This document shows, one piece after another, positions 18,885-57,092 of a stretch of 64,000 nt of DNA. Source of the DNA: an uncultured Mollicutes bacterium (GTDB lineage Bacteria > Bacillota_I > Bacilli_A > RFN20 > CAG-288); contig UQDS01000003.1 in the NCBI GenBank assembly GCA_900539865.1, positions 90,789-154,788 of the forward strand, written 5' to 3'. Positions within the stretch are counted from its first letter, which is position 1. Each line of letters opens with the position of its first letter. The position numbers and the translations under genes were made by a program. The notes under the pieces are model-generated. The model was not told where the DNA came from, made no database searches, and worked only from the letters and a program-made list of their open reading frames with translations.

Positions 18885-21794
18885 TTATTTATTGATACCA
18901 ACATAGGTAGGAAGTCTTAAAGTGGAGTTAACAATCTTATCCTGTCCATTGAAATCGACGGAGTAGACGAATGTGAGTGTGGCAATCGGAGTATTCACGA
19001 CATCTGCTTCAGCTTCCACGGTGTTGAACGCCTTGTCTAAGGTGATTTCAACAGTGTAATTGTTGCTAGCAGTTGCGCCGAACTCAGAAAGGTTCCACTT
19101 GCGAGTGATACCACCGTTTGTCGCCTGGATGGAGAAACCTTCTAACTTCGCACCAGCGTTGACTAATTCCTTGAAGGAAAGCTTATAAGTGACAGACTGA
19201 GAAGCTCTATCTGTGGTTTGACCAACCTTAGTAGCATTTGCTAAATCGCCCTTAGAGTTGAGAAGAACAGCAGTGTTAGCTGCATTCCACAAACCATCGA
19301 AAGACCAAGTCTTACCATCATAGACAATCGGATTTTTGGCATCGACCTTATCGGTGTCAGCGCCCCAGTTAAGGGTGAAACCAGAAGAGTTATCACTCTT
19401 TAAAACTTCAACGAAGTTAATCGGGTTAAGCGCGTTGCCAGAAACAGCACCGAAACCTAAGTCGAATTCACCACGTTTCATCTTGTCGTAAACGGCGTTG
19501 TAATCGCTAGAAGGTGTCGGTTCAACAAATCTGAGGATGTAATTTCCATAATATTTCTTGCTGACAAGTTCGTCGAAAGCTTTCTTGATGGAATCAAAGA
19601 CATCGGAATATTCCTTGGTGTCGTTGGGGTTCATCCAGTCAACTCTGACAGAGATGACATATGCGTTACCTTCTTTTTCAAGTTTTCCGGCTTCTGCCAT
19701 CTGTTTGATAGAACCTTCAATCGCTAATTCAAGTTCTTTCTTAGCGGCATCCGGGTTGTATCCATAAGTGTCGTTATAACGGTCAGCAAGGACAGCTTTG
19801 TGAGCGTCGGTGGAGTTATAAGAAACACCGCTTTCCGGATCGATGAGGTAGTTATCAGAGAAGTATTCTTGTGTCGGCTTCATACCACGGGATTCGCAAA
19901 TTGTCTTACGATCCATGGAGAAGGATAAGAAATTAAGGAAGTGAATATCAGACATGTAAGGTCTGTGTTGGAGGTAATCCGCTTTGGTAGTTTCGTTACC
20001 GTTGAAGTCGTGCTGATAAATCGTACCGTTCTTACCGAAACGATTTGTCCACTGTTCTACAGTAGAAGCGTTGACATTGAGTTTGAAGTTAGAATCGCCC
20101 TTGGTCTCATATTTTCTCCACTTGATGCCGTTGGAAGAAACACCGTCATTGGCACTATAAGCACCACCGGTCTTCAAATCTTCTTTGCTCGGAGCATAGG
20201 AGTCGATTTGACCTGCTTCAAAAGCATTCTTAGAAGTGGCCGGATCATCAACCATATGATATTCAAAGCCCTTAAGCTGATAAACATCACGTGTACCGCC
20301 AGAAGCGAAAACGTCTCTGGTGTAGAAATATTTGTCGTTCTTAGCGAAGGTAATATCCTTATCTTCCCAACGGGTGATGTAGTAAGGACCTGTGGAAAGC
20401 ATGGTGTCTAACGGTTTGTATCCGTCAGGAGACTTACCTAAATCCTTCGGATTCCAAAGGTTGAGGAAGTCGCCAGGAAGCGGAGAGTAGAGAGAAGAGG
20501 AGAGATAATACATGGCGTAGAACTGTGTGCAAGGCTGCTGGAGTGTGAATTCAATGTAATCACCGGATTCATCATGACCAGTCTTGACAACATTGTCCAT
20601 GTTGCATTCTTTCCACAACTTTTCGTTGTAGTAATTATAATCGCCAGTGAGATTGGAAGTCTTAGCTAAGTAATCGGCAGCCTCTAATCCTAAACCGGAA
20701 ATACCTTTGGTTTGTTCCGGACCTCTATACTGACCATTGTAACCAGTGAGCATGTACTTGATCGGAGCGATGTAGTCGTCCAAAGCGACCTTTCTACCAT
20801 CAAAGCTCTTGAGCTGAACTCCGTTCTTTGACTTGGTAGAAGCAGTACGATAGACAAAGTCTTCGCCGGTCTTGACGTGGATTCTCCACTTGTTGCTCAA
20901 GACAGAGTCCTGATTTTCAGTGATGACAGAGCCAGAATCCGATAACGGAAGCGGACGATCATCTGTAGAAAGAAGCGGATACCACTCATAACCGTCGTTG
21001 GTTTCGTTCATACGAGTAGAGAAGTAAGAGGTGGTGATGTGCTGAGCAGCATCGGAAACGTCAGAACCAGATGCGTTCATGGCATTGAGGTGAGCAGGAA
21101 GCGCAGTGGTACCGACCTGATACATTTCCGCATCGTGACCAATGAACGGATTCGGAAGCTTACCAGTGAGCTTACCTTCTCTCATTGTTCCCCAACCATA
21201 ACCGTTGATGTAAGACGGAGCGGTAGGAACATAACGGTTGTTATAAACAATGTTAGAACCGTTAGAGAACATGGTGATACCAGTGAGATAGTTATCGACA
21301 GCATATTTTTCTAATGCGCCGAGAATATTGGCTTTTTCTTCATAGCTTGCAGTTGCGTAAGAGAAAGCGCCTTCTGCTTGCTGTGTCGCTTTGACAGTGA
21401 CAGTGAAAACCATGTTCTGAGTATCATCGCCAGTCGGATGGACTGTGATGTCTGCAGAACCAGCTTTTACCGGCTTGAGTAAACCGTTGTTTTCATCGAC
21501 ACCAAGAACACTCGGATCACTCGATGTATAAGTGAATTCAGGAACATTGCCAGTGAGATCAGTAGCGACAAGGATTGCAGTCTTGTCACCAAGATAGACT
21601 TCAATTCCTGCACCCTGTTCATATTGTTGACCTTTATAGGTGACATAGAAAGCAACATCAGTGATGTCAGAAGTGTGACCGGAGTTACCAGTGTCTGTGC
21701 TAGGACCGACACTCGGCTGGTTACCGCCGCAAGATCCAAGAAGAGCAACAGATACGAGCGCTAACAACGTAAGACCTTTTTTCATGTTTTTCAT
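18885..21794 (-). CDS. oppA: oligopeptide-binding lipoprotein OppA (enlarged, 969 aa)
   Basis: It has a signal peptide with the lipobox LLGSC-GG and substrate-binding-protein family-5-like regions. It is the first gene of the operon. Confidence 0.75.
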   Translation of the reverse strand: MKNMKKGLTLLALVSVALLGSCGGNQPSVGPSTDTGNSGHTSDITDVAFYVTYKGQQYEQGAGIEVYLGDKTAILVATDLTGNVPEFTYTSSDPSVLGVDENNGLLKPVKAGSADITVHPTGDDTQNMVFTVTVKATQQAEGAFSYATASYEEKANILGALEKYAVDNYLTGITMFSNGSNIVYNNRYVPTAPSYINGYGWGTMREGKLTGKLPNPFIGHDAEMYQVGTTALPAHLNAMNASGSDVSDAAQHITTSYFSTRMNETNDGYEWYPLLSTDDRPLPLSDSGSVITENQDSVLSNKWRIHVKTGEDFVYRTASTKSKNGVQLKSFDGRKVALDDYIAPIKYMLTGYNGQYRGPEQTKGISGLGLEAADYLAKTSNLTGDYNYYNEKLWKECNMDNVVKTGHDESGDYIEFTLQQPCTQFYAMYYLSSSLYSPLPGDFLNLWNPKDLGKSPDGYKPLDTMLSTGPYYITRWEDKDITFAKNDKYFYTRDVFASGGTRDVYQLKGFEYHMVDDPATSKNAFEAGQIDSYAPSKEDLKTGGAYSANDGVSSNGIKWRKYETKGDSNFKLNVNASTVEQWTNRFGKNGTIYQHDFNGNETTKADYLQHRPYMSDIHFLNFLSFSMDRKTICESRGMKPTQEYFSDNYLIDPESGVSYNSTDAHKAVLADRYNDTYGYNPDAAKKELELAIEGSIKQMAEAGKLEKEGNAYVISVRVDWMNPNDTKEYSDVFDSIKKAFDELVSKKYYGNYILRFVEPTPSSDYNAVYDKMKRGEFDLGFGAVSGNALNPINFVEVLKSDNSSGFTLNWGADTDKVDAKNPIVYDGKTWSFDGLWNAANTAVLLNSKGDLANATKVGQTTDRASQSVTYKLSFKELVNAGAKLEGFSIQATNGGITRKWNLSEFGATASNNYTVEITLDKAFNTVEAEADVVNTPIATLTFVYSVDFNGQDKIVNSTLRLPTYVGINK

Positions 21795-22435: not shown

Positions 22436-25400
22436 TTACTTGTCGGCCTTCTTCTTGAAGATGGCAACAGCAGCTCCTAAGAGAGCAAGTGCGCCAACAG
22501 TGGAAGAAGCGATGACGACAGAACCGCCACAGCCGCCCTTTTCAGGTTCCGAAGTGGAAGTGCCGCCTTCGGTTGTGCCGCCGCTAGAGGAGTCACCACC
22601 AGAAGATTCACCGCCAGTAGAGCCGCCACCAGTTCCTTCAGATGCAGGAGCGTGGTTGATTGTAAAGGAAGCAGCATCTTTACTAAACGTGAAGCTGATT
22701 AAACCAGTTTCGGCGTTGTAGTTGACCTGGACAGATTCGCCATCGACAAAGACCTTAATGTCATCGACATTCAAATTCTTTGCGATGTTCATGTTGATCG
22801 TCATATCCTGCTTTCTGATGACAGAGTCACCGGTAGCAGCGTTAAGAATATCAACAGCGTAGGTGTAATTTCCGTTAGAAGCATTGATTAAAGTGATGTC
22901 ATAATCTTGCTTCGAAGTGAAGAAAGTAGAAGAGACAGAGAAGTCAATCTGAGAAGGCTTGACTAAGATCTTCTGAGTGTTGTGAGCGTGGTCGGTGAGT
23001 TCAACAAACATCTTATCCTCTTCCTTCCAGCTATCGTTGATCCAGAAGTAAGTAGAGGTGAGATCTGTGCCAGCAATCTCTTCCATCTCACGACCAACTG
23101 TGACGTTGACGGAAGCGAAGGAAGCACCATGGGTGACAATATTGAGACGGTCATCTCCATCTTCCTGAGTGATGGAAAGACCAGCTAAAGTCGGAGCAGT
23201 CTTATCGACAACAAGAGTGTACTGTTTGACTTGCATTGTTCCAGTACCGATCTTCTTGAAGTTGAACTTCAATGTGTATTCGCCTTCCGGAACAGTGGAA
23301 AGGTCGATATCGACATAGCCGCGATGGATCATGAATCCAGTGCCATTTGCAACTAAGAAGGACTTCATCAATTCTCCCATATCCTGAGCAACTGCCGCAG
23401 TACCATAGGTGTATAAATCGCGGATATTCTCGCCTTTAATCTTCTTACCATCTTTATTGATGATTTCATAGTTTGCATCAGAAACTGCACGGTTGACGAA
23501 GAAGGTACCAATCAAATGTTCAGAGACACCAGGAGCACCAGCATAGATGCGATCCTTGTTCTTTCCATCGGTAACTGTCAAGTAAGTTGTACCGTTTGGT
23601 TTTGTGCTTTCATCGAAGGTGTTGATACGAGCGAAGTTTTCACTGGTCAAACCAGAAGCGCTTGCAGCGAGAGTGGAGCCGGCATAAGCATAAGGTTTCT
23701 TATAGGCATCGGCTAAGTTCTGCACGTAGTTGCTGACAAGATCAGAACCATAGAGCTTGCCTTCTTCTCTTTCGAAATCAAATGCTTCTACAGCATCGGC
23801 CTTAGTGTAATCACCATAGAATCCCATGAACGGAACAGAGAGTTCGCTCTTTACATCTTTCTTGGTGCTGACATCTTCGAAATCGAGATAGCCTTCGATA
23901 TAGTTACCGCCTGCTTCTTCGAAATACTTCTGGTAATATTCTTTCAAGGTACCCTTGAAGTTTTCAACCTGAGAGTCGTTGAATTCTTTTTCAAACGGAA
24001 GGTTGTCAATTCTGACTTTGCACTTGCCGCTGATTTCGCCATTTGCAGGAACGACAACATTGTCTAATTCAACTTTCTTGACCAAATCATCAAGAACTGT
24101 TGTGGTGATTTGACCAACACCATAAGGATAATCAGAAGAGTTCTTATTATAACCGATAACTTCGGATTTGGAAGATTCTTCCATATTGTCATATTCATCG
24201 TGAGAAACCGCAACTCTCAAGCTAGGAACCATGACAGAGAGCGCCGGCTTGTAAGTTCTTTCGACTGCGGAATCATTGTGGATTGTGTAATCGAATTCAA
24301 TATAGCTTTCAGTAGTATCGCTTGTATTAGAGAAATCAACCTTGAGAGACTTAGAATTCTTTAATTCCACTTTGGATTGAACCGTATTTTCAAATCCTTG
24401 AGTGTCTTCGTTAGGAACAGTGATGTAAGAGTCAGAGGTGAGCATCTTTTCGACATCGATACGACCAGCACCCTGAACTCTCGGAGAAGCGTAGTTTCCG
24501 TCGCCGGAAGTGCTAAGGAGCTTCTCAGTAGAAGACATTGCCTTCATAGAAGCGACTTTCTTTTCGTTTTCGAAAGCCTGTGCATCTTGAAGCGCAAGTG
24601 TTCCCTTATTATCCGGTTTTCTTTCAGAGAGATATAAAGCTAATGCACCGGTGAAGTTAGGAGCTGCCATAGAAGTACCGGACATATTTTCATAACCAGT
24701 TAAGAAGGAATAACCAGGATTCATCGGGTTGGAACCATCGTTGTAATATTCAGCGCTGACAGCACCCATGATTTCTTTACCAGGAGCTGCAACAGTGACA
24801 CCCATATCGAGGTTTGCTTCGCCGCCGTCACTAGAGAAAGAAGCTAACATGTTGCCATCGCTAGCAGTCTGGGTAGTGTTAGTAGCGATAGTAAGCTTAC
24901 CTTCGTTACCGCTATTTTCATCCGGTAAACCGAAGATTCCTTTGGAGTTTTGGAAAACAAAGACAATCGGAATAGAAGGATCATTATCCGCAAAGTCCAT
25001 AGAGAAGTTGAAGGTGACAGAAGGATCGTTGTTGATGACGATCAATGCTTTTGCACCGTGAGATGCAGCAGAGAGATATTTGTTGACGAAGGAAGTAGTA
25101 CCACGGGAGACAACCGCAATCTTACCAGAGACATAGGAATCTGTCTTCGGGTTGTAAGAGCTAGTGTCGATACCATGAGCTCTATCGACCTTTTCATAGT
25201 CGGAATCTTTACCCCAGCCAGGAATGACAACATATTCGAAATCGGCAGAAGACTGACCTTGCGGCAATAAAGAAGCCAAAGGACGATCGGTGACGTTCGG
25301 TTGTGTGGCAGAGGATTTAGCCTGGTCGTTATAAGCGACAGCGCTCGGAGCAGAAGCATCCTTGTTTTGGACAGTAAGAATCGAAGAGAAGAAAGCTTTT

Positions 25401-26623
25401 TCCGGATTAGAAGCCGCAACGATATTGGCAGATTCATCAAAGTGAGATTCACCACCTAAGATACTGGTTTCCACCATGTCACGAGTCCAGTCGCCATAAG
25501 AAGCAGAGCTGGAGAAACTAGACTTACCAGAGTTACCGGCAGCATAGTTGACAATGACACCGGCTTTGGAAGCAGCGTTGATTGCTCTGTAACCGGCAGA
25601 TTCTGTATTGTCACCGCTGGTGTTAAGGTCCGTACCTAAAGAGAGGTTGACAACATCGAGTTTAAGTTTTGCAGCATCTTCCAACGCTTTGATAACCGCG
25701 CCTTCAGAAGCGCCGCCATCATAGTCCGGGAAGACCTTCATAACAGCGATTTGAGCTTTCGGGGCAATACCCTGGAAAACATCGCCGTTAGCACCTGCTA
25801 AAGAAGCGACGTGTGTACCATGTTCACTTCCGTTGCTTGTCGGATCGACATTGTTGTCGCCGCCGTCATAGTCGCGAGCGAAGAAGACTTTGTTGTTGAC
25901 GTGAGTGAAATAATTTTCCTTAAAGCCTTTGCTGATGACATCATCCTTGGTGACAGAATAATCACCGGCAGAAAGATCTTTAAAAGCGGCGGGGTTGAGT
26001 TTCTTTCCCTGACTGAGAAGTTTTTCTCTGGTTTCAGAACCTTCAACCTGGTTGAGATAAAGACCGGTATCGATGATACCTACTGTGATGTTTTTACCTT
26101 GCTGAGAAGAAACGCCTTCGCTGGCGCCTCTCTTCTTCAAAGCATCGGCAACCGCTTTGTTCGTGGCATCCATGGTTTCAGCAGAATAGTTTGCTAATCT
26201 GAGTTCACGGGTTTCATAACCAGCGTCTGTAGGAAGCATAGAGTCTAAACCAGTGCTGACAGCCTCCGGTCTAGCGTAGGTGTGAGAAGCCAAAACTTCG
26301 CTGACACCATTGACAGATTTGAGATAATCTTCATAACGGGCGTTGACTTTGATTTCAAAGCCGTTGAGAAGAGTGTCATAGGTATTAACCACTTCAAAAG
26401 AACCTTGTGGAAGGTTGTAAGTAATTTGGTTAAGAACTTTGTTACGGTTATACTTCAAGGAAGCAGCATCGTCTTTGAATACATCGCCATCACAAAGGAC
26501 AATGTATGACTTGTCTTCATCATTCTTAGCAAGTTTATCACTGATTTTTGTGTGACTTGCAGAATAGAAACTAAGTCCGAGGATGGTTGCTAAAGAAGCC
26601 ATAACGATAAATTGTTTTTTCAT
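22436..26623 (-). CDS. cell-envelope subtilisin-like serine protease (peptidase S8, lactocepin/C5a-peptidase-like) with PA-domain insert, G/S-rich stalk and C-terminal TM anchor
   Basis: It has a signal peptide and the catalytic motifs VGIIDTGL (Asp), HGTHVAS (His) and GTSMAAP (Ser). The C-terminus ...GGCGGSVVIASSTVGALALLGAAVAIFKKKADK has no LPXTG. Confidence 0.85.
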   Translation of the reverse strand: MKKQFIVMASLATILGLSFYSASHTKISDKLAKNDEDKSYIVLCDGDVFKDDAASLKYNRNKVLNQITYNLPQGSFEVVNTYDTLLNGFEIKVNARYEDYLKSVNGVSEVLASHTYARPEAVSTGLDSMLPTDAGYETRELRLANYSAETMDATNKAVADALKKRGASEGVSSQQGKNITVGIIDTGLYLNQVEGSETREKLLSQGKKLNPAAFKDLSAGDYSVTKDDVISKGFKENYFTHVNNKVFFARDYDGGDNNVDPTSNGSEHGTHVASLAGANGDVFQGIAPKAQIAVMKVFPDYDGGASEGAVIKALEDAAKLKLDVVNLSLGTDLNTSGDNTESAGYRAINAASKAGVIVNYAAGNSGKSSFSSSASYGDWTRDMVETSILGGESHFDESANIVAASNPEKAFFSSILTVQNKDASAPSAVAYNDQAKSSATQPNVTDRPLASLLPQGQSSADFEYVVIPGWGKDSDYEKVDRAHGIDTSSYNPKTDSYVSGKIAVVSRGTTSFVNKYLSAASHGAKALIVINNDPSVTFNFSMDFADNDPSIPIVFVFQNSKGIFGLPDENSGNEGKLTIATNTTQTASDGNMLASFSSDGGEANLDMGVTVAAPGKEIMGAVSAEYYNDGSNPMNPGYSFLTGYENMSGTSMAAPNFTGALALYLSERKPDNKGTLALQDAQAFENEKKVASMKAMSSTEKLLSTSGDGNYASPRVQGAGRIDVEKMLTSDSYITVPNEDTQGFENTVQSKVELKNSKSLKVDFSNTSDTTESYIEFDYTIHNDSAVERTYKPALSVMVPSLRVAVSHDEYDNMEESSKSEVIGYNKNSSDYPYGVGQITTTVLDDLVKKVELDNVVVPANGEISGKCKVRIDNLPFEKEFNDSQVENFKGTLKEYYQKYFEEAGGNYIEGYLDFEDVSTKKDVKSELSVPFMGFYGDYTKADAVEAFDFEREEGKLYGSDLVSNYVQNLADAYKKPYAYAGSTLAASASGLTSENFARINTFDESTKPNGTTYLTVTDGKNKDRIYAGAPGVSEHLIGTFFVNRAVSDANYEIINKDGKKIKGENIRDLYTYGTAAVAQDMGELMKSFLVANGTGFMIHRGYVDIDLSTVPEGEYTLKFNFKKIGTGTMQVKQYTLVVDKTAPTLAGLSITQEDGDDRLNIVTHGASFASVNVTVGREMEEIAGTDLTSTYFWINDSWKEEDKMFVELTDHAHNTQKILVKPSQIDFSVSSTFFTSKQDYDITLINASNGNYTYAVDILNAATGDSVIRKQDMTINMNIAKNLNVDDIKVFVDGESVQVNYNAETGLISFTFSKDAASFTINHAPASEGTGGGSTGGESSGGDSSSGGTTEGGTSTSEPEKGGCGGSVVIASSTVGALALLGAAVAIFKKKADK

Positions 26624-28125: not shown

Positions 28126-31100
28126 CTACTTGTTATCGTTCGTACGGAAAATGAAGTTATAAACAGAGTACTTTCCGTTGAAATGATAAATTTCCGAGAA
28201 ACTATAGCTATGACCGATGGCGGAATCTTTCAAAGCAGAACTATCCAATGGTAATTTATCAATGATGGAGGGACCGATATGCAAACTCTTTTTAATTGTA
28301 GAATTGATGATTGGTGTGAGAATGAAATCATACTGTAACGCCTTCATTTCAATGTTCTTACTGGCAAGAATCAACTGTTCAAAGTTCATATGTCGCAAGG
28401 AAAGCGGAACTTCTAACTGGTTCAAAACGATGTAAGCATTAAACTCATCCGCGAATTTTTTCTTCATCGCAAAGCGATAAGTGTTCAACAATACAGCATA
28501 GTTTAACGCCTCTTTATATGCGCCTTCTGCCTGACCATCGAAAGTGAGGAAGACATAGCCGTTTTTACCATATGTTGTCTTCATTTCTAAGAAGGAGCGA
28601 GGGCAAGTTCTTTGCGCTGTGCGATCGATCAAATCATAGAAAAGCTTTTCTTTCGTATTGTCAGAACCGTCTTCTTTTGAGCTTGTGCATTTGACAAAGA
28701 TATAAATCAATTTCGTAGTCTTCTTTTCGTTTCTCTTTGCCACTTCTAAAGCTTCTGCAGTGTTATAAGGATCGGTGATAAAGTCATCAGAAACAATTTG
28801 GAAGCCCTTAGCATCTTCTACGATATTAAATTCTTTTCCATTAGTAGAGAAGGACTCTTCTTTCATATCTTGTAAAGATAAAAGATTTCCGATAACAACA
28901 TTATTTTTGTTTTCTTCATAACGTGGATTGATAACACGATAATTCCATCCATAATCACTATTTTTAATATTGAATTCTTTCTTTCTGATCAAGCGGCCTG
29001 CAAAATCAGTGACAAAGTCTTTCTCTTCTCCGATGATTTCATCCCAATAATCATATGCTTTCGCTTCGTTTTTGATCTCTTCATCAACATAAGAAACATC
29101 GCTTTGTCCGAGTTCTTCTACCTCGTTATCCGCAAGATTTAAATCATATACTTTTTCATTGTCTTTTCTAACCCAAGTGGTATGACTTAAAAGTGCTTCT
29201 TCGATATTATTTGTCTCTAATGCAAGAGCGTTTTCCGAAAGATAAGAAGTCATCTCATTATAGAAATTCAAATCTCCGCCCAAAGAGACATAAATCAATT
29301 TCATTTCTAAAGCCTTGTTTTTCTTTTGAGTTGTCTCTAATTCTTCTTCTGTTCTTGTCACTTTTTCTTTTAAGGTGACAAGTTCTTCTCCTAAGGACTT
29401 GTTTTCCGATAAGGAACTTTCATTCGCTAAGCGGATAGCAGCGAATTCTTTTTCATATTCTTCTAACTTCAATCCTTCTTGCGCAGATTTGCTTTCCAAC
29501 GCCTGCTTTTCTTCTTTCAATTGTTCTAATTCTTGTTGTTGTTCTTCTTTTAAAGAAGAAAGTTCACTTACTTGTGAAGTTAAAACTTCTAAATTTTCTT
29601 TCAATTGGGCATTTTCATGAGAAAATTCATTGCGTTCAAAAGCGATGCTATCAAAGCGTTCACTCGCTAATTTATCTTCTTCTTCCTCTCTTGCTTTTTC
29701 TTCTAAGAGAGCAGTCTTTTCCGCTTCTAACGCTTCTTTTGTTTGCTTGAGTGTTTCCAATTCCTTCAGCAATTCTTCTCTTTGTGTTTCTTGTGCTTTC
29801 TCTTTTAACAAAACTTGTTGTTCTCTCTCTGAAATTAAAACATTCAAAGAAGAAATTGTGTCGCGAAGTGTATTTTCGTCGTTTTCACAATTTTCCAATT
29901 TTTCTTTTTGCTCTTTCAATTCTTGAGCCATTTTTTCTAATTGCAATGTTTGTTCTTGAAGTTGTTGTTTCAGTTTTTCAGTTTCTTCTTCTTTCTCATT
30001 TAAAGAAGCCTCTTTCAAAGTTAACACTTCTTCTTGATTCTTTTCTAAAAGTAAAACTTTGTGCATGTAATCTTCTTTTTGAAGAGAAAGTGCATCTTTT
30101 TCATCGGTTAAAGTCTCCACCTTCATCTTCCAATCCGTGATTTCTTGCGATAAGTTTTCCTTCTCGTTCACAACATTTTGATAAGAACTCTTACATTCTG
30201 CTAACTGAGAAGACAATTCTTCTACCTGTTTATTTAAACGATTGATCTCTGTCTCATCGTTGATTGATTTCGCCATCAACGTTTCCGCTTTTGCTTTATA
30301 GGAATCCAATAGACCATCCAATTCAAAACGATTGGCTTCGCCAAGTTCTTTCATCTGTTGATTCAATTCTTGAATCTGTTGTTTCATGTGACATTTTTCT
30401 TTCGTCACATTTTCTAAATCAACCAAAAGCTGTTCTTTCGCACCCGAAAGATTGTCTTTTGCTTGTGCTAAAGTAGCAATCAATTCTTTGGCTGAAACCA
30501 AAGAATTTCTTGTGATTCCCAACTCTGTTTTAATTTCTTCAAAAGAAGATAGCAACGATTCATAATTCGTTTTTAATTCTTCTTTTTCCTGGATGAGAAT
30601 ATTCTTTTCATCCGTCAAATCAGCAACTTTTGTAAGTAGAAGTTCTGTTTCTTCCTCTTCAGAAGATATTTCTTCCTTTTTCTCTTCGTGGACAATTTCT
30701 GTCTCTGTTTCAAAAGGATCTACAACATCGATATCAACCGATGTCACTTCTTTTTCTAATCCATCTGTCAAAATAGTCTCGTGAGATAAAGTATCTTCTT
30801 CCTCTTCTTCCGTGATTTCGACAGGTTCCCCTTCAAAAATAATATCGCTGATTTCCTTATCATCCAAAATTTCTTCTTTGTCACCTAAATCAACTTCTTC
30901 GACGACTTCTTTTTGTTCAATATTTTTCGTAACTGTTTCCGGGTTGACCTCTTTTAAGATTTTTTCATCCGAAAGAGAAGTTTCTACTTGTGAAGCATTA
31001 AAAACAGGTGCTTGATCCAAATTTTGATTATCGGCGTTTGTCTCTTCTTCAAATTCAAAACCTACCGTATTTTCCGAAAAAACTTTATCGCGGATATTTT

Positions 31101-31542
31101 TTAAATTTGGAAGAATAAAGTGCTTTGTCTGTCCATTCGTTCCATAAAGTTTTTTGTGATATGCTAAAACTTTCTCAGTATCTAAATCGTCTTTACTCGG
31201 TGTACGATCCAGAGGGTGATTGAAATCAGTGACATCATAAATTGCAAAGGTACGGAATTTTTTGCCTTTGCGAACTTCAAAAATGCCATTGCCAATTTTA
31301 AAGGACATCTTGTCTCCGCGAATATTCTTTGTAAGCATGGAACAAGGGATTAAATTATCATCCGTGATCATGCCTCCGTTTGACAAAGGCTTAATCAAAT
31401 CGATGGTCCAACCATAATTTGAATTTTCGTTTTCAAAGTCTTCTAATTTCATCGGTTGCGCTGCATAATCGTATGCTACTTGCGCTTCACCAAAATATCG
31501 TTTCCAAATTTCAATAGATTTCGTTTGCTCCATAAGAAACAC
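28126..31542 (-). CDS. giant coiled-coil protein flanked by two copies of a degenerate (His-less) HNH-like domain
   Basis: The N-terminus W..YFGE..YDYA...NYGWTIDLIKPLSNGG...DNL.PC....KN..GDK aligns to the HNH core DHIxPxSxGGxxxxxNLxxLCxxCNxxK with His replaced by Leu and the Cys residues lost. A second copy lies after the coil (DYGWNYRVINP...NNVVIGNLLSL). Between them is a roughly 600-aa E/K/L/Q heptad-rich region and an acidic tract. Confidence 0.6.
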   Translation of the reverse strand: MFLMEQTKSIEIWKRYFGEAQVAYDYAAQPMKLEDFENENSNYGWTIDLIKPLSNGGMITDDNLIPCSMLTKNIRGDKMSFKIGNGIFEVRKGKKFRTFAIYDVTDFNHPLDRTPSKDDLDTEKVLAYHKKLYGTNGQTKHFILPNLKNIRDKVFSENTVGFEFEEETNADNQNLDQAPVFNASQVETSLSDEKILKEVNPETVTKNIEQKEVVEEVDLGDKEEILDDKEISDIIFEGEPVEITEEEEEDTLSHETILTDGLEKEVTSVDIDVVDPFETETEIVHEEKKEEISSEEEETELLLTKVADLTDEKNILIQEKEELKTNYESLLSSFEEIKTELGITRNSLVSAKELIATLAQAKDNLSGAKEQLLVDLENVTKEKCHMKQQIQELNQQMKELGEANRFELDGLLDSYKAKAETLMAKSINDETEINRLNKQVEELSSQLAECKSSYQNVVNEKENLSQEITDWKMKVETLTDEKDALSLQKEDYMHKVLLLEKNQEEVLTLKEASLNEKEEETEKLKQQLQEQTLQLEKMAQELKEQKEKLENCENDENTLRDTISSLNVLISEREQQVLLKEKAQETQREELLKELETLKQTKEALEAEKTALLEEKAREEEEDKLASERFDSIAFERNEFSHENAQLKENLEVLTSQVSELSSLKEEQQQELEQLKEEKQALESKSAQEGLKLEEYEKEFAAIRLANESSLSENKSLGEELVTLKEKVTRTEEELETTQKKNKALEMKLIYVSLGGDLNFYNEMTSYLSENALALETNNIEEALLSHTTWVRKDNEKVYDLNLADNEVEELGQSDVSYVDEEIKNEAKAYDYWDEIIGEEKDFVTDFAGRLIRKKEFNIKNSDYGWNYRVINPRYEENKNNVVIGNLLSLQDMKEESFSTNGKEFNIVEDAKGFQIVSDDFITDPYNTAEALEVAKRNEKKTTKLIYIFVKCTSSKEDGSDNTKEKLFYDLIDRTAQRTCPRSFLEMKTTYGKNGYVFLTFDGQAEGAYKEALNYAVLLNTYRFAMKKKFADEFNAYIVLNQLEVPLSLRHMNFEQLILASKNIEMKALQYDFILTPIINSTIKKSLHIGPSIIDKLPLDSSALKDSAIGHSYSFSEIYHFNGKYSVYNFIFRTNDNK

Positions 31543-52201: not shown

Positions 52202-52468
52202 ATGAAAATTTGTCCGAACTGTCATAGAGAATGTGATGAACACAATTGGTATTGTCCAAATTGCCATCAAAGGCTTCCTTCTTTGAATATCAAAGCAACG
52301 GGGCATGCAAGTTATGGAGATCTTGATGCCTATAATCAGCGCTTTAAAGCATCGGTAGAAGATAAAGAGATGATTCGAGAAAAAAATCATCAAACCAGTG
52401 GCGATGATGATTTTGATTGCGCACAACCATACTCTTATATCAAAAGAGAAAACGGAGATCGAAATTAA
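52202..52468 (+). CDS. zinc-ribbon domain protein
   Basis: It has two CxxC pairs (CPNCH...CPNCH) at the N-terminus and is 88 aa long. Confidence 0.5.
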   Translation: MKICPNCHRECDEHNWYCPNCHQRLPSLNIKATGHASYGDLDAYNQRFKASVEDKEMIREKNHQTSGDDDFDCAQPYSYIKRENGDRN

Positions 52469-52599
52469 AAAAACAAAATACTTTAAAATGATATGAATTA
52501 CCGATTCTGGACAACTGAGAAAATAGAAAAATTAACTATCCAAACAAATTATAAATCATACTAATTAGTGTTGATGTGAATAGAGAAAAATCATTGTTT

Positions 52600-52652
52600 G
52601 TTAAAAGAATAGTGATAGATAATTTCCTTATTGTCAGATTTTTCAGCAAGAT
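52600..52652. repeat. roughly 50-bp relic of an rhs gene, near-identical to 54624-54675 inside the RHS CDS
   Basis: The sequence aagaata..gatagatRatttccttattgtcagatttttcagcaag has about 3 mismatches over about 50 nt. It sits in non-coding AT-rich DNA. Confidence 0.55.
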
Positions 52653-52972
52653 TATGAAGGAAGTGTGAAGCTATAAAAATATATATCATCTTATAAGTGT
52701 TCAAATGTGTTTTTTAGACACATTTGAGAACCATAAGAAAGAGAATTTTTTTATAAAAACATTCAACCAACAAACTTAAATGTGGTTAAGAATAATGTTT
52801 ATATATAATTTAATGACGGTCTCAAAGAATACATTAATAAGAACTATGATGGCTTAAATATCTAGATCAAGATTCAAATTGAGGGGAGCGTCAACTCATT
52901 AAAAACAACAAAATAGAATCACAACAAAAGACCGCTTGATCCTATTAGTGATAGTAGGGTTGGGCGGTCTAT

Positions 52973-53467
52973 TTACTTATTAATTTTAGGTAAAGAATCA
53001 TAGAAATGAGGAACTAAATGCAGTATTTCTTTTTCTAAATCCTCATAGTCTTTTTGGCTCATTTTGCTTTGCTTTTCAAATAATTTATTACTTTGTTTAG
53101 AAAGGATGCACTTGGTGATAATCACTATTGAGACATAAATTCCCATCAAAACACCACTAATGATATTTAAGGTTAGATAAAAAACTTCATTTAACTCGAA
53201 ATACACAATAAAAGAGCAAATCACCGAATTAATAAGGAAATAGATCCAGAAACTTAATACAATAACAACATTTTGTTTTATGTGAAGGAAGTTTTTGTAA
53301 CGGTTTTTCTTTAAAAAAAGAAAATGAAGCCAGCTATTTGGTTTAATCATATATGTTTTAAAAAGTAAATCCGAGTCTATGATATTAAAGACGACTCTTC
53401 CTGGAGAAATTAAGAAACTACATAATGAATACAGAATAATGAAAATATGCAAAATCAAAAATATCAT
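52973..53467 (-). CDS. small multi-TM membrane protein, putative immunity protein for the adjacent RHS C-terminal toxin
   Basis: It is 164 aa with 3-4 TM helices and lies immediately downstream of the RHS gene on the same strand. Toxin-immunity gene order is inferred. Confidence 0.4.
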   Translation of the reverse strand: MIFLILHIFIILYSLCSFLISPGRVVFNIIDSDLLFKTYMIKPNSWLHFLFLKKNRYKNFLHIKQNVVIVLSFWIYFLINSVICSFIVYFELNEVFYLTLNIISGVLMGIYVSIVIITKCILSKQSNKLFEKQSKMSQKDYEDLEKEILHLVPHFYDSLPKINK

Positions 53468-53596
53468 AATTATAATTATAGATATATATTCATAGTTTTA
53501 GAAGTAAAAAATCGTTTAGTTCTCTACTTTAATGAACTGACTAATCAAAAGTAGACTATTCAAATACGAGAATTACTGGGTTAAAGATTAAAAGGT

Positions 53597-53643
53597 ATAA
53601 AAAGGCTGTCGCCACAACTTACATTAATTGTTTTGACAGCCTT
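53597..53643 (-). terminator. hairpin terminator after the RHS gene
   Basis: The hairpin aaggctgtc...gacagcctt has a 24-nt loop and a flanking A/T run. Confidence 0.45.
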
Positions 53644-53650
53644 TATTTGT

Positions 53651-55606
53651 TTACATATATGGCGACAACACTTCTGAACAGACAGTAGTTAATACCATTA
53701 TCAAGCTCCCCATAAATACGTTTTTAATAGCAGTATTTTTAAGAGCTTTGGCAAAGGATACGGTTGCACTTTTAAGGAATAGATTCATCGTACCTTGAAC
53801 TCCTCTTAAGGAAATTCCTCCCATAAAGAATTTACTTATTGTATTTTTTACTACATTTGATGATTTAAATGGCATCGTTTTGAATAGTGTTCTTGTCATT
53901 AACTTAGAAGTTTGCGCTCCTTCACCAAGCAATCCACTTATTGCACCTAACATTGCAGAATCAAATACATTGTTCCAATTTATGGGATCTCCGTTAATGA
54001 TATCAGTTCCCATGCTTTGAACAGCTGATAAACCTGCATTAATGAGAACTTGTCCTCCTAAGCCAATTCCTGTGGCACCAAGCGCACCTCCAATTCCACC
54101 AATGACAGCGCTAAGAGCAACTTCTTCCCAATTAATATTTTCCCAACCATTTTGAATTCCTTGAGATACAATATTTGTAGCTGCACTTACTGTAGCACCT
54201 ATTGCTGTCCCAATTACAACCGCCAATAAAGAAAATATAAAATGGCCTGAAGGATCCACATTCATCACCGGATTATCACCGCAGTACATGTAGAGGTTCA
54301 ACCCGTTAATTTGGGACTTAGTTTTGTCAAGGATGGATAACTCATCTGAAGAGATGAATCTACTCATTGTAGGAGAATAATATCTAGCATTGAGATAATA
54401 CCAACCAGTCTCAGAATCGAAGTAATAACCACGATATCTGAATGGGTTTATGTCACCAATTGTGTCATCAGTATAATTGATTACTTCATGGTTTCCATAT
54501 GCGTCGTAATGGTACTCAGCAACTAAAGTTAGATTATCTTTTTGATAGATTCTCAAGACATCTCCTTGGATATTTCTTTCATAGATGTATTCGACACCAT
54601 TGAAAGTAAATCCAATGAGTTTGTCAGAAGAATAACGATAGATGATTTCCTTATTGTCAGATTTTTCAGCAAGTATTTTATCATTAAGAATAAAGTAAGT
54701 GGTCTTGACTCCATTAACAACTTTACTCGTTCTAATACCATTTAAGCCATAGGTATAAACTACATCATCGAATCCAATGAGCTTACCTTTCTTGTTCCAA
54801 GTAAGTTTATGATTGCCGATAGAATTAGGTCTACCCATGACATCGTAGGCGATTGTTTCACCATTGAAGTTAGTGAGTTGATCTTTATTACCTTTCGATG
54901 CATAGGTGTAGGAAGTGATATTAGGAGAATAAAGTCTATCCTCAAGCGAGTATTTATATTCTTTCTTAAGCAAGATGTTTCCACCGGAATCATATTTATA
55001 GACAATTGTTTTATTTAAGGATGGATTATCTTCTCTAACCAGTCTACCTAACGCATCATATTGATAACGGATTTCAGAATCATCTCTTTTTATAGAGATA
55101 ATGTTGCCAGATACATCATATTCGTATTCGGTGGTATCACTGATGACACCACCAATACGAATATCATGCTCTTTGATAAGATCCAGTGCATTTTCGCCAT
55201 AGCGGAGATACTCGATACTTTCGTCGACAAGAGAGCGTTCATCATCAAGAAGTTCTTTTCTAGTGACTCTACCTAAGGCATCATATTCAAACTGCTGTTT
55301 TGTATTGTCAATAGAGACAGTTTTAATTTGATTCTCTTTGCCTTCAACGTATTCGAATTTAGTCGTTGTAGTGATATTGCTGGCAGTTTCCGTTTTTGTC
55401 ACAACTCTTCCGTGACTGTCATAAGTAACTTCTTCTTTTGTTGTAATATCATCATACTTATATTCGTTGGAAAGAATCTGGTCCTCGATGTTATAGGCAG
55501 TGGTTACAGTTTCCTCACCGGAATTTTTATCAATTTTAACCAAACGGTCTCTATCGTCATATACATAGACGATAGAATCACCATCATTTGTCGTTGTGGA
55601 GTTCAC
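53651..55606 (-). CDS. RHS/YD-repeat polymorphic toxin, N-terminally truncated remnant with glycine-zipper C-terminal toxin domain
   Basis: Multiple YD repeats (YxYDxxGR) and the core end ARYYSPTMSRFISSDE...NLYMYCGDNPVMNVDPSGH are followed by GxxxG-rich hydrophobic helices. The only possible start is a GTG lacking an RBS, and an in-frame stop lies 10 codons upstream at 55634-55636, less than 120 nt from the glyA stop. Confidence 0.7.
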   Translation of the reverse strand: MNSTTTNDGDSIVYVYDDRDRLVKIDKNSGEETVTTAYNIEDQILSNEYKYDDITTKEEVTYDSHGRVVTKTETASNITTTTKFEYVEGKENQIKTVSIDNTKQQFEYDALGRVTRKELLDDERSLVDESIEYLRYGENALDLIKEHDIRIGGVISDTTEYEYDVSGNIISIKRDDSEIRYQYDALGRLVREDNPSLNKTIVYKYDSGGNILLKKEYKYSLEDRLYSPNITSYTYASKGNKDQLTNFNGETIAYDVMGRPNSIGNHKLTWNKKGKLIGFDDVVYTYGLNGIRTSKVVNGVKTTYFILNDKILAEKSDNKEIIYRYSSDKLIGFTFNGVEYIYERNIQGDVLRIYQKDNLTLVAEYHYDAYGNHEVINYTDDTIGDINPFRYRGYYFDSETGWYYLNARYYSPTMSRFISSDELSILDKTKSQINGLNLYMYCGDNPVMNVDPSGHFIFSLLAVVIGTAIGATVSAATNIVSQGIQNGWENINWEEVALSAVIGGIGGALGATGIGLGGQVLINAGLSAVQSMGTDIINGDPINWNNVFDSAMLGAISGLLGEGAQTSKLMTRTLFKTMPFKSSNVVKNTISKFFMGGISLRGVQGTMNLFLKSATVSFAKALKNTAIKNVFMGSLIMVLTTVCSEVLSPYM

Positions 55607-55717
55607 CCACGGAACAAAAGAAGGGCGTTATGGATTCCTACATGATTATCGTGATTGATATCACGATATAGAGGTAGCGTTATAAAATAAAAAACAGGAA
55701 TTTAAACATATAAAATT

Positions 55718-56974
55718 TTAGTCTAACTCATAGGGAAGCGGATATTTTTCGTTGAGCTTACGAACCTCTTCTCTTACTTTTTGATGGATTTCTTCATCGC
55801 TTGGATTCTTTAAGACAAGTGCGATTAATTTACCAACTTGAATGAAGTCTTCACGGTTATAGCCACGCGTGGTCATCGCAGGAGTTCCTAAACGCAAACC
55901 AGAAGTGTAAGCCGGCTTTTCTTTATCGCCAGGGATAGAATTCTTATTTGCGGTGATATTGCAAGACTCTAAGAGTTCTTGTGCCTGTAAACCTGTGACG
56001 CCAAAGGAATCTTTCACGTTGACAAGAAGAAGGTGGTTATCACTGCCACCAGTGATGATTTTCATTCCTTGTCTAGAAAGTTCTTCGCATAGCGCATGGC
56101 AATTATCCACAACGCGTTCCATGTACACTTTATAGTCTTCTTGTAAATCTTCACCAAAAGCAACGGCTTTGGCTGCAATTGTATTTTCTAATGGTCCACC
56201 TTGGCAACAGGGGAAAACGGCTTTATCGATTTTCTTTCCGATTTCAACATCATCAGAGATGATAATACCCCCTCTTGGACCTCTTAAAGTCTTATGAGTT
56301 GTGGAGGTGATGACATGTGCATAGGGAACCGGACTTGGATGTAATCCAGTGGCGACAAGACCGGCAATGTGAGCCATATCTACCATTAAGTAAGCGCCGA
56401 CTTCATCTGCAATTTCTCTAAATCTCTTAAAGTCTATGATGCGGGGATAGGCGCTAGCACCTGCTACGATAAGTTGCGGCTTTACTTCTTTAGCGATTCT
56501 TAAAACTTCATCGTAGTCGATCAAACCAGTTTCTTCGTTGACACCATAAGAGTAAGATTCATAGTCTTTTCCGGAGAAAGAGAAACGATATCCGTGTGTT
56601 AAGTGGCCTCCGGCATCTAAAGACATACCTAAAATGCGGTCACCATTTTTTAAAAGAGCTTTGTAGACTTCCATATTGGCTTGTGAACCAGAGTGGGGTT
56701 GTACGTTTGCAAAAGAGCAGTGGAATAATTTTTTCAATCTTTCGATTGCTAAATTTTCTGCCATATCAACAAACTGGCACCCACCGTAATATCTTTTGCC
56801 GGGATAGCCTTCAGCGTATTTGTTTGTCAAAACAGAACCGTTTGCTTCTCTCACTGCGTTAGAAACAAAGTTCTCGCTTGCGATTAATTCGATATTATCT
56901 TCTTGTCTACGTCTTTCTTTGCAGACGATATCATATAACTCGGGGTCTGCTTTTCTTAAATTGTTGTTATCCAT
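55718..56974 (-). CDS. glyA: serine hydroxymethyltransferase
   Basis: It has PLP-dependent SHMT motifs and a conserved Lys region ([12 protein letters not shown]). The start is at the ATG (MDNNNLRK) preceded by GGAGG; the longer ORF-track start at 57028 has no RBS. Confidence 0.9.
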
Positions 56975-57092
56975 AGTGAATTCCTCCAAACTTATATTAG
57001 AGTAACACAAACAAAAGTCTTTGAGCATTAAAATTGATAAATGAACTATATCAATATATACATTTTAAAACAATGAAGAAAAGTTGCCTTAT

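Follow-up and report, generated by a model that had tools for sequence, protein, structure and literature searches.

A truncated RHS gene beside glyA in an uncultured Mollicutes bacterium as a probable orphan toxin–immunity module

Orphan rhs-CT/rhsI modules, in which a truncated rhs gene carries a variable C-terminal toxin region (CT) next to its immunity gene, are known from Enterobacteria (Poole et al. 2011, PMC3150448; Koskiniemi et al. 2014, PMC3967940), and Tse5 (RhsP1) of Pseudomonas aeruginosa is an Rhs effector whose CT forms pores and depolarises membranes (PMC9637101, PMC10684867). In the 2012 catalogue of polymorphic toxins, Tox-WTIP is the sole pore-forming RHS cargo listed (PMC3482391). 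Glycine-zipper toxins that depolarise membranes have also been described for type VII secretion (T7SS) in Bacillota, namely EsxX (PMC12744356), together with TspA and TelE as cited in PMC9484751 and PMC13492133, and temperate phages of Firmicutes encode the MuF polymorphic toxins (PMC5576092). Here we analyse an RHS locus at positions 52470–55717 of a 64,000-nucleotide stretch of DNA (hereafter the window; GenBank assembly GCA_900539865.1, contig UQDS01000003.1, positions 90,789–154,788, forward strand) from an uncultured Mollicutes bacterium of the GTDB lineage RFN20/CAG-288. A first-pass annotation, made by a model from the letters and their open reading frames (ORFs), had read it as a decayed toxin gene with a putative membrane immunity gene. 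Judged from its sequence, the locus has most of the features of an orphan rhs-CT/rhsI module. It is probably such a module, made up of the 3' third of a ~2120-aa RHS gene, the cognate immunity gene (imm164) and relics of earlier modules, in which the toxin would be silent and the immunity gene would probably still work.

A 5'-truncated RHS gene and its C-terminal domain

The RHS gene is represented by an ORF encoding 651 aa on the reverse strand (53651–55606), which begins with GTG 111 nt 3' of glyA (55718–57028), the gene that the locus had been said to abut. As the first-pass annotation proposed, this ORF contains YD repeats and the terminus of an RHS core: it matches RHS_repeat in Pfam (PF05593, 1e-14) and TIGR01643 in NCBIfam (1.5e-11), with the RHS-associated core TIGR03696 at aa 367–455 (3e-21; NCBIfam). 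The sequences quoted in that annotation, ARYYSPTMSRFISSDE...DNPVMNVDPSGH followed by VIGGIGGALGATGIGLGG, were found in the ORF. Its first 454 aa (54245–55606, reverse strand) form the YD-repeat/RHS core, which closes in DNPVMNVDPSG-H; the DPxG autoproteolysis motif DNPVMNVDPSGH, at which cleavage is predicted, stands at the end of this core and is followed by a C-terminal domain of 197 aa, here called CT_A (aa 455–651 and the stop codon, 53651–54244, reverse strand).

Alignment with intact relatives confirmed the 651-aa ORF as a fragment of a larger RHS gene. Two such relatives, both from gut Bacilli metagenome-assembled genomes (MAGs), have 2122 aa (locus L013, an 'uncultured Bacilli bacterium' MAG) and 2124 aa (protein P0147). 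The window ORF aligns only with aa 1472–2122 of the former, its core part with aa 1472–1925 (70% identity over 475 aa, tblastn), so that ~70% of the RHS protein is missing; the deletion had been recognised before but had been put at the N-terminal half. With only 454 aa of core present, the complete shell and the N-terminal plug/delivery region (>~1400 aa at full length) are absent. As had been observed, no Shine–Dalgarno (SD) sequence precedes the GTG at 55606, while most genes in the window carry AGGAG-like motifs. Between the stop of glyA and the RHS fragment, the junction (55607–55717, reverse strand) contains a 9-bp hairpin (~55640–55675) and an in-frame stop, which lies not 10 codons upstream at 55634–55636, as first reported, but 8 codons upstream (TAA, 55628–55630). 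The same glyA/RHS junction was found in the conspecific contigs L017, L018 and L023.

Homologous RHS fragments in other genomes break at five residues (1415, 1472, 1489, 1545 and 1604), including residue 1489 in L003, 1545 in L010 and 1604 in L008, while in L001 and L002 the frame extends 55 codons 5' of the called start before it meets a stop. Because the break points differ, the called starts of these fragments are ORF-calling artefacts. The contexts of the fragments are likewise unrelated, ranging from a defence island with an IS3 element to prophage edges and, in the window, the interval between glyA and a HAD hydrolase gene.

CT_A is hydrophobic and rich in glycine (12.7%). It has three strongly hydrophobic, transmembrane (TM)-like 19-mers at CT residues 2–20, 42–60 and 176–194, and an extended glycine zipper, SAVIGGIGGALGATGIG, at CT residues 45–61. 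This zipper bears out one part of an earlier description of the domain as packed with GxxxG motifs; their abundance, by contrast, mostly reflects composition, as 5.3% of composition-preserving shuffles reach the observed count of 6 (p 0.05). An AlphaFold2 (AF2) model of the domain, based on a 36-sequence alignment, was all-helical with 7 helices, at a moderate pLDDT of 68.

The domain belongs to a large family. A word-indexed protein search with the CT alone returned one protein, and exhaustive profile searching was needed: a profile (A1) built on nine CT_A-like domains and run against 1.84 billion representatives matched 1046 proteins at E ≤ 1e-3, of which 407 reached E ≤ 1e-10, these being cluster representatives at 50% identity. 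In the matches the domain was invariably C-terminal. All five of the long carriers scanned (1413–2425 aa) were RHS proteins, and about two-thirds of the top 145 matches were shorter than 500 aa and are therefore fragments or orphans. The CT of the intact 2124-aa protein P0147 is 91% identical to that of the window. The HMM search of the CT that the first-pass annotation had proposed gave no Pfam or NCBIfam family, even at E up to 1; a PDB sequence profile search returned only a chance lectin match (E 0.028), and Foldseek of the AF2 model against PDB found only generic helical membrane proteins (best E 0.65). With these homology tests negative, CT_A is not a demonstrable member of a characterised pore-forming or depolarising family, such as Tse5-CT, EsxX, TspA, TelE or the CdiA ionophores. 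Its sequence does share the physical features of pore-forming toxins, namely hydrophobic helices with a glycine zipper. Its position after the DPxG cleavage site, the place of RHS cargo, supports reading it as a toxin, and its hydrophobicity, zipper, post-cleavage position and membrane immunity protein together suggest that it would act on membranes.

Pairing with the immunity gene and exchange as a cassette

Downstream of CT_A lies imm164 (52973–53467, reverse strand), the putative cognate immunity gene, which is intact and encodes 164 aa. The small membrane protein expected here is present, with three TM-like segments by hydropathy (aa 2–20, 67–85 and 99–117) and a polar C-terminal tail of ~45 aa. 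The gene was intact in eight of eight conspecific loci examined; seven of them encode the identical protein and the eighth (L006) differs at one residue, and the exact imm164 sequence was found on 36 contigs.

That CT_A and the 164-aa protein form a toxin–immunity pair, as had been suggested from their arrangement, is supported by covariation: the type of CT covaries with the family of the downstream gene, without exception among the loci examined. In four lineages the gene after CT_A belongs to the 164-aa family, namely in the window, L011/L024 (88% identical), L008 (33% identity, E 1e-13) and L009 (hhalign probability 91%, E 1e-6). A second all-hydrophobic type of CT (P0008, P0009, P0011) is always followed by a TM family of 142–149 aa, which is unrelated to the 164-aa family (hhalign probability 0.35%). 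The third type, CT type C (copy 1 of L017, L017:1334-3757), consists of a Gly-rich hydrophobic stretch of ~130 aa, which may be a translocation segment, and a soluble domain of ~90 aa; its partner is a soluble immunity protein of 111 aa, while the all-hydrophobic CTs are paired with TM proteins. Neither the CT domains nor any of the three immunity types matched a Pfam or NCBIfam family, even at E up to 1, and for the 164-aa protein there was no PDB family either.

Comparison of the window with L011 shows where these pairs have been exchanged. Nucleotide identity is 70–86% in the core and climbs to 90–98% at the core/CT junction (~54207–54244); it keeps this level across CT, terminator and immunity gene before dropping after ~52977. 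At the same time, synonymous divergence (dS) is 1.32 for the RHS core and 0.11 for the immunity gene. This jump at the core/CT junction indicates that the CT and the immunity gene move jointly, as a cassette of ~1.25 kb, between diverged cores; joint exchange of this kind, here read from sequence identity, is a hallmark of polymorphic toxin systems. The ratio of nonsynonymous to synonymous divergence (dN/dS) of the core is 0.08–0.18. Since the differences are clustered and mosaic, indicating recombination, this ratio is uninformative on pseudogene status.

No SD sequence precedes imm164. A TATAAT hexamer lies 7 nt 5' of its ATG (53475–53480, reverse strand), with the same spacing conserved in the intact loci L011 and L024, and is possibly the -10 box of a leaderless imm164 transcript. 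In a promoter scan, promoter-like sites were fewer than in shuffled sequence (10 vs a mean of 18), so no promoter call is statistically supported.

Relics, strain polymorphism and prophage context

An intrinsic terminator hairpin after the RHS ORF (53601–53644, reverse strand; inverted repeat I7), followed by UUUUUAUACCUUUU, folds at -20 kcal/mol (z -3.9), and none of 200 shuffles folds as well. A second, bidirectional terminator hairpin (52929–52970; -15.1 kcal/mol, z -2.7) stands between the immunity gene and a convergent holin relic, within a block of ~155 nt that is conserved 3' of different cassettes and has homologues in L003 and L017.

Two gene relics, which the first-pass annotation had missed, occupy the supposedly intergenic region 52470–52973. 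One is a phage holin pseudogene (phrog_13712 family; 52683–52904, forward strand), convergent with the immunity gene and interrupted by 4 in-frame stops; it is 35% identical over 74 aa to a 130-aa holin of L011 (tblastn, E 4e-8 to 4e-9), which itself matches phrog_13712 at 3.6e-30. The other is an older RHS core relic of ~120 nt with one internal stop (52582–52704, reverse strand), equivalent to aa 1766–1803 of the intact protein (41–49% over 39–41 aa, E 1e-4 to 5e-4). Inside it lies a 55-nt direct repeat (52596–52650; family D1), 91% identical to 54619–54673. Apart from this relic, tblastn with RHS proteins found no other rhs in the window. The AT-richness attributed to the locus was also evident, with GC at 26–30% over 52500–53750 and 33–39% over the RHS ORF, against 38–46% in the flanks. 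A scan of the whole window against Rfam gave no match.

Contigs of the same species, with flanks 99.2–99.6% identical to the window, carry the site in two forms. A one-module allele is present in the window, L018, L022, L023 and L005–L007, and a two-module allele in L017 and L019; an empty site between glyA and the HAD gene was not found, every conspecific contig that spans the site having one or two modules. In the sense of the RHS gene, the order in L017 is glyA, RHS fragment 1, the 111-aa immunity gene, a frameshifted holin gene, the last 11 codons of an XhlA-like gene, RHS fragment 2, imm164, the old holin relic and the RHS core relic. Fragment 1 has the glyA junction of the window, a core from residue 1472 and CT type C, while fragment 2 has a core from residue 1403 and CT_A. 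The frameshifted holin gene between them is nearly full-length and 79–89% identical to the L011 holin. Only 2 of 1362 nt distinguish the two core copies, and in the single-module allele the 5' junction is that of copy 1 and the 3' end, including the CT, that of copy 2, so that one homologous recombination between the core repeats relates the two alleles. Lysis-gene remnants between the modules indicate that phage DNA came in together with a cassette. The simplest model for these data would be Campbell-type recombination of a phage-borne rhs with a chromosomal core remnant, followed by deletion. As the holin relic is far more diverged than the adjacent cassette, the history of the locus involves more than one event.

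The intact relatives provide a context for these phage remnants, a connection that, like the downstream relics, was absent from the first-pass annotation. In L024 and L025 (L024:7828-17119, L025:75-8678) an operon encodes a sigma-70 region-4 protein, an XhlA-like protein (phrog_1863), a holin (Phage_holin_5_2), a nucleotidyltransferase, a 2124-aa RHS protein and imm164. In both, and in L011, the intact operon is convergent with a prophage lysis cassette, with the 130-aa holin gene, an XhlA-like gene and tail genes. The first-pass annotation had expected a full-length relative with an LXG, WXG, T7SS or other N-terminal domain; instead, the intact relatives lack a signal peptide and any recognisable N-terminal domain, and stand behind a holin gene. 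The arrangement of RHS gene, immunity gene and convergent holin gene recurs in L003, L008, L011 and L024. In L011 and L024 this holin gene closes an intact prophage late region that also has an XhlA-like gene and tail proteins, and the L008 fragment, too, adjoins a prophage holin, an XhlA-like gene and a tail module, whereas the window retains only the holin relic. L009 has a related order (L009:6535-13242), with a sigma factor, a 99-aa protein, a holin and a split RHS (763 + 919 aa), followed by immunity and orphan modules. The most economical inference from these gene orders is that RHS release in the intact relatives depends on the holin or on lysis. The layout of the L024/L025 operon recalls the sigma- and holin-dependent release of large clostridial toxins.

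Several further observations concern the surroundings of these modules. Beyond the split RHS and its immunity gene in L009 (L009:13467-16820), a string of small ORFs, including a 174-aa glycine-zipper CT fragment followed by a 138-aa TM protein, resembles a classical orphan array. Anti-phage defence genes adjoin the RHS module in L024 (PycTM, AAA_23, MC2 and CTD6; L024:2964-7466) and in L001 (AbiH, HamA with a helicase, and an EcoRI methylase; L001:1-9226). Between the relics and the HAD hydrolase gene, the window has an 88-aa ORF (52202–52468, forward strand) that weakly matches a double zinc ribbon (PF12773, E 8e-4); every conspecific contig has it, and it may be part either of the chromosome or of the old insert. 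The longest glyA ORF starts at 57028 (436 aa), but a GGAGG SD sequence precedes the ATG at 56974, which is probably the true start; glyA is called at 418 aa in most conspecific contigs (L005, L006, L017, L018 and L023), and at 436 aa in L007. Four large ORFs elsewhere in the window, all on the reverse strand (4585–7497, 18885–21794, 22436–26623 and 28126–31542), are not RHS-related by tblastn: the two of ~970 aa match nothing in NCBIfam, the 1395-aa product is subtilisin-like (S8) and the 1138-aa product is coiled-coil and SMC-like.

Proposed role, alternatives and comparison with known systems

In the intact relatives, the RHS shell would enclose the hydrophobic CT until the protein leaves the cell, aided by the holin or through lysis; severed at the DPxG site, the CT would then insert in the cytoplasmic membrane of a competitor and dissipate its membrane potential, and the three-TM immunity protein would block the CT within the membrane. 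The window strain no longer has the first ~1471 codons or any of the upstream operon. The locus has no shell, N-terminus, sigma factor, functional holin gene or translation signal, and since the remaining ORF lacks a ribosome-binding site, a deliverable toxin cannot be made. By contrast, imm164, which sits between two terminators and perhaps has its own promoter, is intact and probably still functional, and would protect the cell against CT_A-type toxins of its neighbours. The one- and two-module alleles show that the retained 1.36-kb core serves as a homology arm for the gain and loss of cassettes. The best reading of the present role of the locus is therefore that of an orphan immunity gene and a recombination substrate.

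A number of observations weigh against this account or parts of it. Neither the sequence nor the fold of CT_A matched a characterised pore-former, and confidence in its AF2 model is only moderate (pLDDT 68, as above). The promoter scan did not report the TATAAT upstream of imm164. A scan of IMG/VR with the RHS protein found no relatives, and tblastn against INPHARED found no close relative, only distant RHS/YD proteins at 23–37% identity, so that the phage link rests on the prophage context in MAG contigs. The holin relic is 35% identical to the L011 holin, as against ~90% for the cassette, which again points to more than one event. The core dN/dS lies well below 1, which could reflect selection on the fragment; variation imported from functional paralogues by recombination explains it equally well. 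Finally, the 64 kb of the window are the only part of the genome seen, and a full-length rhs elsewhere in it is possible.

Three other explanations of the locus were weighed against the orphan-module reading, and the one that comes closest to it is still unlikely. It holds that an internal promoter and a start near the cleavage site make the CT inside the cell, so that the CT and its immunity protein act as a type II toxin–antitoxin-like or addiction module, with the effect of stabilising the locus or modulating growth. The precedent is an orphan rhs of Salmonella, where internal promoters and a non-ATG start yield a toxic Rhs-CT (PMC7043789). In the window, a promoter-like TTGAAC-18 nt-GATAAT (54301–54272) lies 6 nt 5' of an internal ATG (Met448, 54265–54263), which stands 7 codons before the DPSG|H cleavage site and has an SD-like GGTGAT 9 nt upstream, and many database ORFs of the CT family begin at the equivalent Met ('MNVDP...'). 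With promoter-like sites rarer than in shuffles, however, this site has no statistical weight, the GGTGAT is dictated by conserved Gly-Asp codons, and the 'MNVDP' starts are perhaps gene-caller artefacts in truncated fragments.

It is distinctly less probable that the hydrophobic C-terminal region serves as a membrane anchor or translocation segment and that the small membrane protein is unrelated or accessory. In its favour, CT type C (L017 copy 1) and P0017/P0019 have a similar Gly-rich hydrophobic stretch ahead of a soluble C-terminal domain, Tde1 uses a glycine zipper for translocation (PMC10240207), and CT_A matches no toxin family. In CT_A, however, nothing soluble follows the hydrophobic region, and its whole 197 aa lie beyond the DPxG cleavage site, in the position of RHS cargo. 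The strict covariation of CT with downstream family and the joint 1.25-kb exchange are, moreover, a toxin–immunity signature, and the pairing of the soluble CT with a soluble immunity protein, and of the all-membrane CTs with TM proteins, speaks to the same effect. We give hardly any credence to the idea of a ~650-aa RHS toxin that is short by nature, has a start of its own, is conserved in length and is exported as it is. Seven near-identical database proteins of 651 aa and two of 650 aa, as well as a core dN/dS below 0.2, might suggest this. The equal lengths, though, represent one species-level allele together with coincidental ORF calls, and a conserved short architecture shared by these nine proteins was ruled out by mapping the differing truncation points, with the frame of L001/L002 running 55 codons further and L003, L008 and L010 breaking elsewhere. 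Furthermore, no SD sequence is present, 454 aa of repeats make up only about a third of a shell, and intact homologues of 2122–2124 aa bear the same CT.

Beyond the orphan-module reading itself, a wider proposal can be offered only tentatively. The RHS toxins of uncultured gut Bacilli may form a prophage-borne, holin-released system that needs no secretion system, in which one operon, with genes for a sigma factor, an XhlA-like protein, a holin and a nucleotidyltransferase, would release a signal-peptide-less RHS protein of ~2100 aa with an unannotated membrane-inserting CT. Phages would spread new CT–immunity cassettes, through homologous recombination, into chromosomal core remnants, leaving orphan arrays with holin pseudogenes, and the window would then represent a landing pad and a stock of immunity genes.

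The locus itself is routine, an ordinary orphan toxin remnant in a human-gut bacterium, and the newer content lies mainly in related loci outside the window, in the unannotated CT family and the prophage-borne, holin-linked RHS operon. It offers an entry point to an RHS toxin domain family without annotation, and to a three-TM immunity family, in human-gut Bacilli. The intact operon suggests how monoderm bacteria without signals for type VI secretion (T6SS) or the T7SS might release RHS toxins, the one- versus two-module polymorphism records cassette turnover through RHS core homology, and the retained immunity gene may affect which strains can coexist in the gut.

Among described systems, the orphan rhs modules of Enterobacteria are similar in combining a truncated rhs, with part of its core retained, a variable CT and a cognate immunity gene, and in forming strain-variable tandem arrays that gain and lose modules by homologous recombination between core repeats. 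All of the first three elements were found in the window, the immunity gene being a putative one. Unlike the enterobacterial modules, however, the fragment abuts glyA and does not lie downstream of a full-length main rhs within the 64-kb window; its host is a monoderm gut Bacilli MAG without a T6SS, and the modules are interleaved with holin and XhlA-like remnants. With Tse5 the locus shares an RHS scaffold and a hydrophobic glycine-zipper CT, whose membrane action would here be analogous, but the two CTs have no detectable similarity in sequence or fold. Moreover, Tse5 travels via the T6SS into the Gram-negative periplasm, whereas the window protein has no secretion domain and its intact relatives are linked to a holin. 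EsxX, TspA and TelE, as interbacterial toxins of Gram-positive bacteria, likewise end in a glycine-zipper domain; their N-terminus is of the LXG kind and the T7SS exports them, whereas CT_A sits on an RHS scaffold and no homology to them was detected. Finally, the MuF toxins and the YD-repeat cassette of APSE-3 resemble the intact relatives in that prophage accessory DNA close to the lysis genes carries a toxin of the polymorphic or YD-repeat kind, and APSE YD toxins are distant matches to the window ORF (23–24% identity). MuF toxins, however, are head-morphogenesis fusions and the APSE toxin targets eukaryotes, while the intact RHS relatives have their own sigma–XhlA–holin operon and in the window just a holin relic is left.

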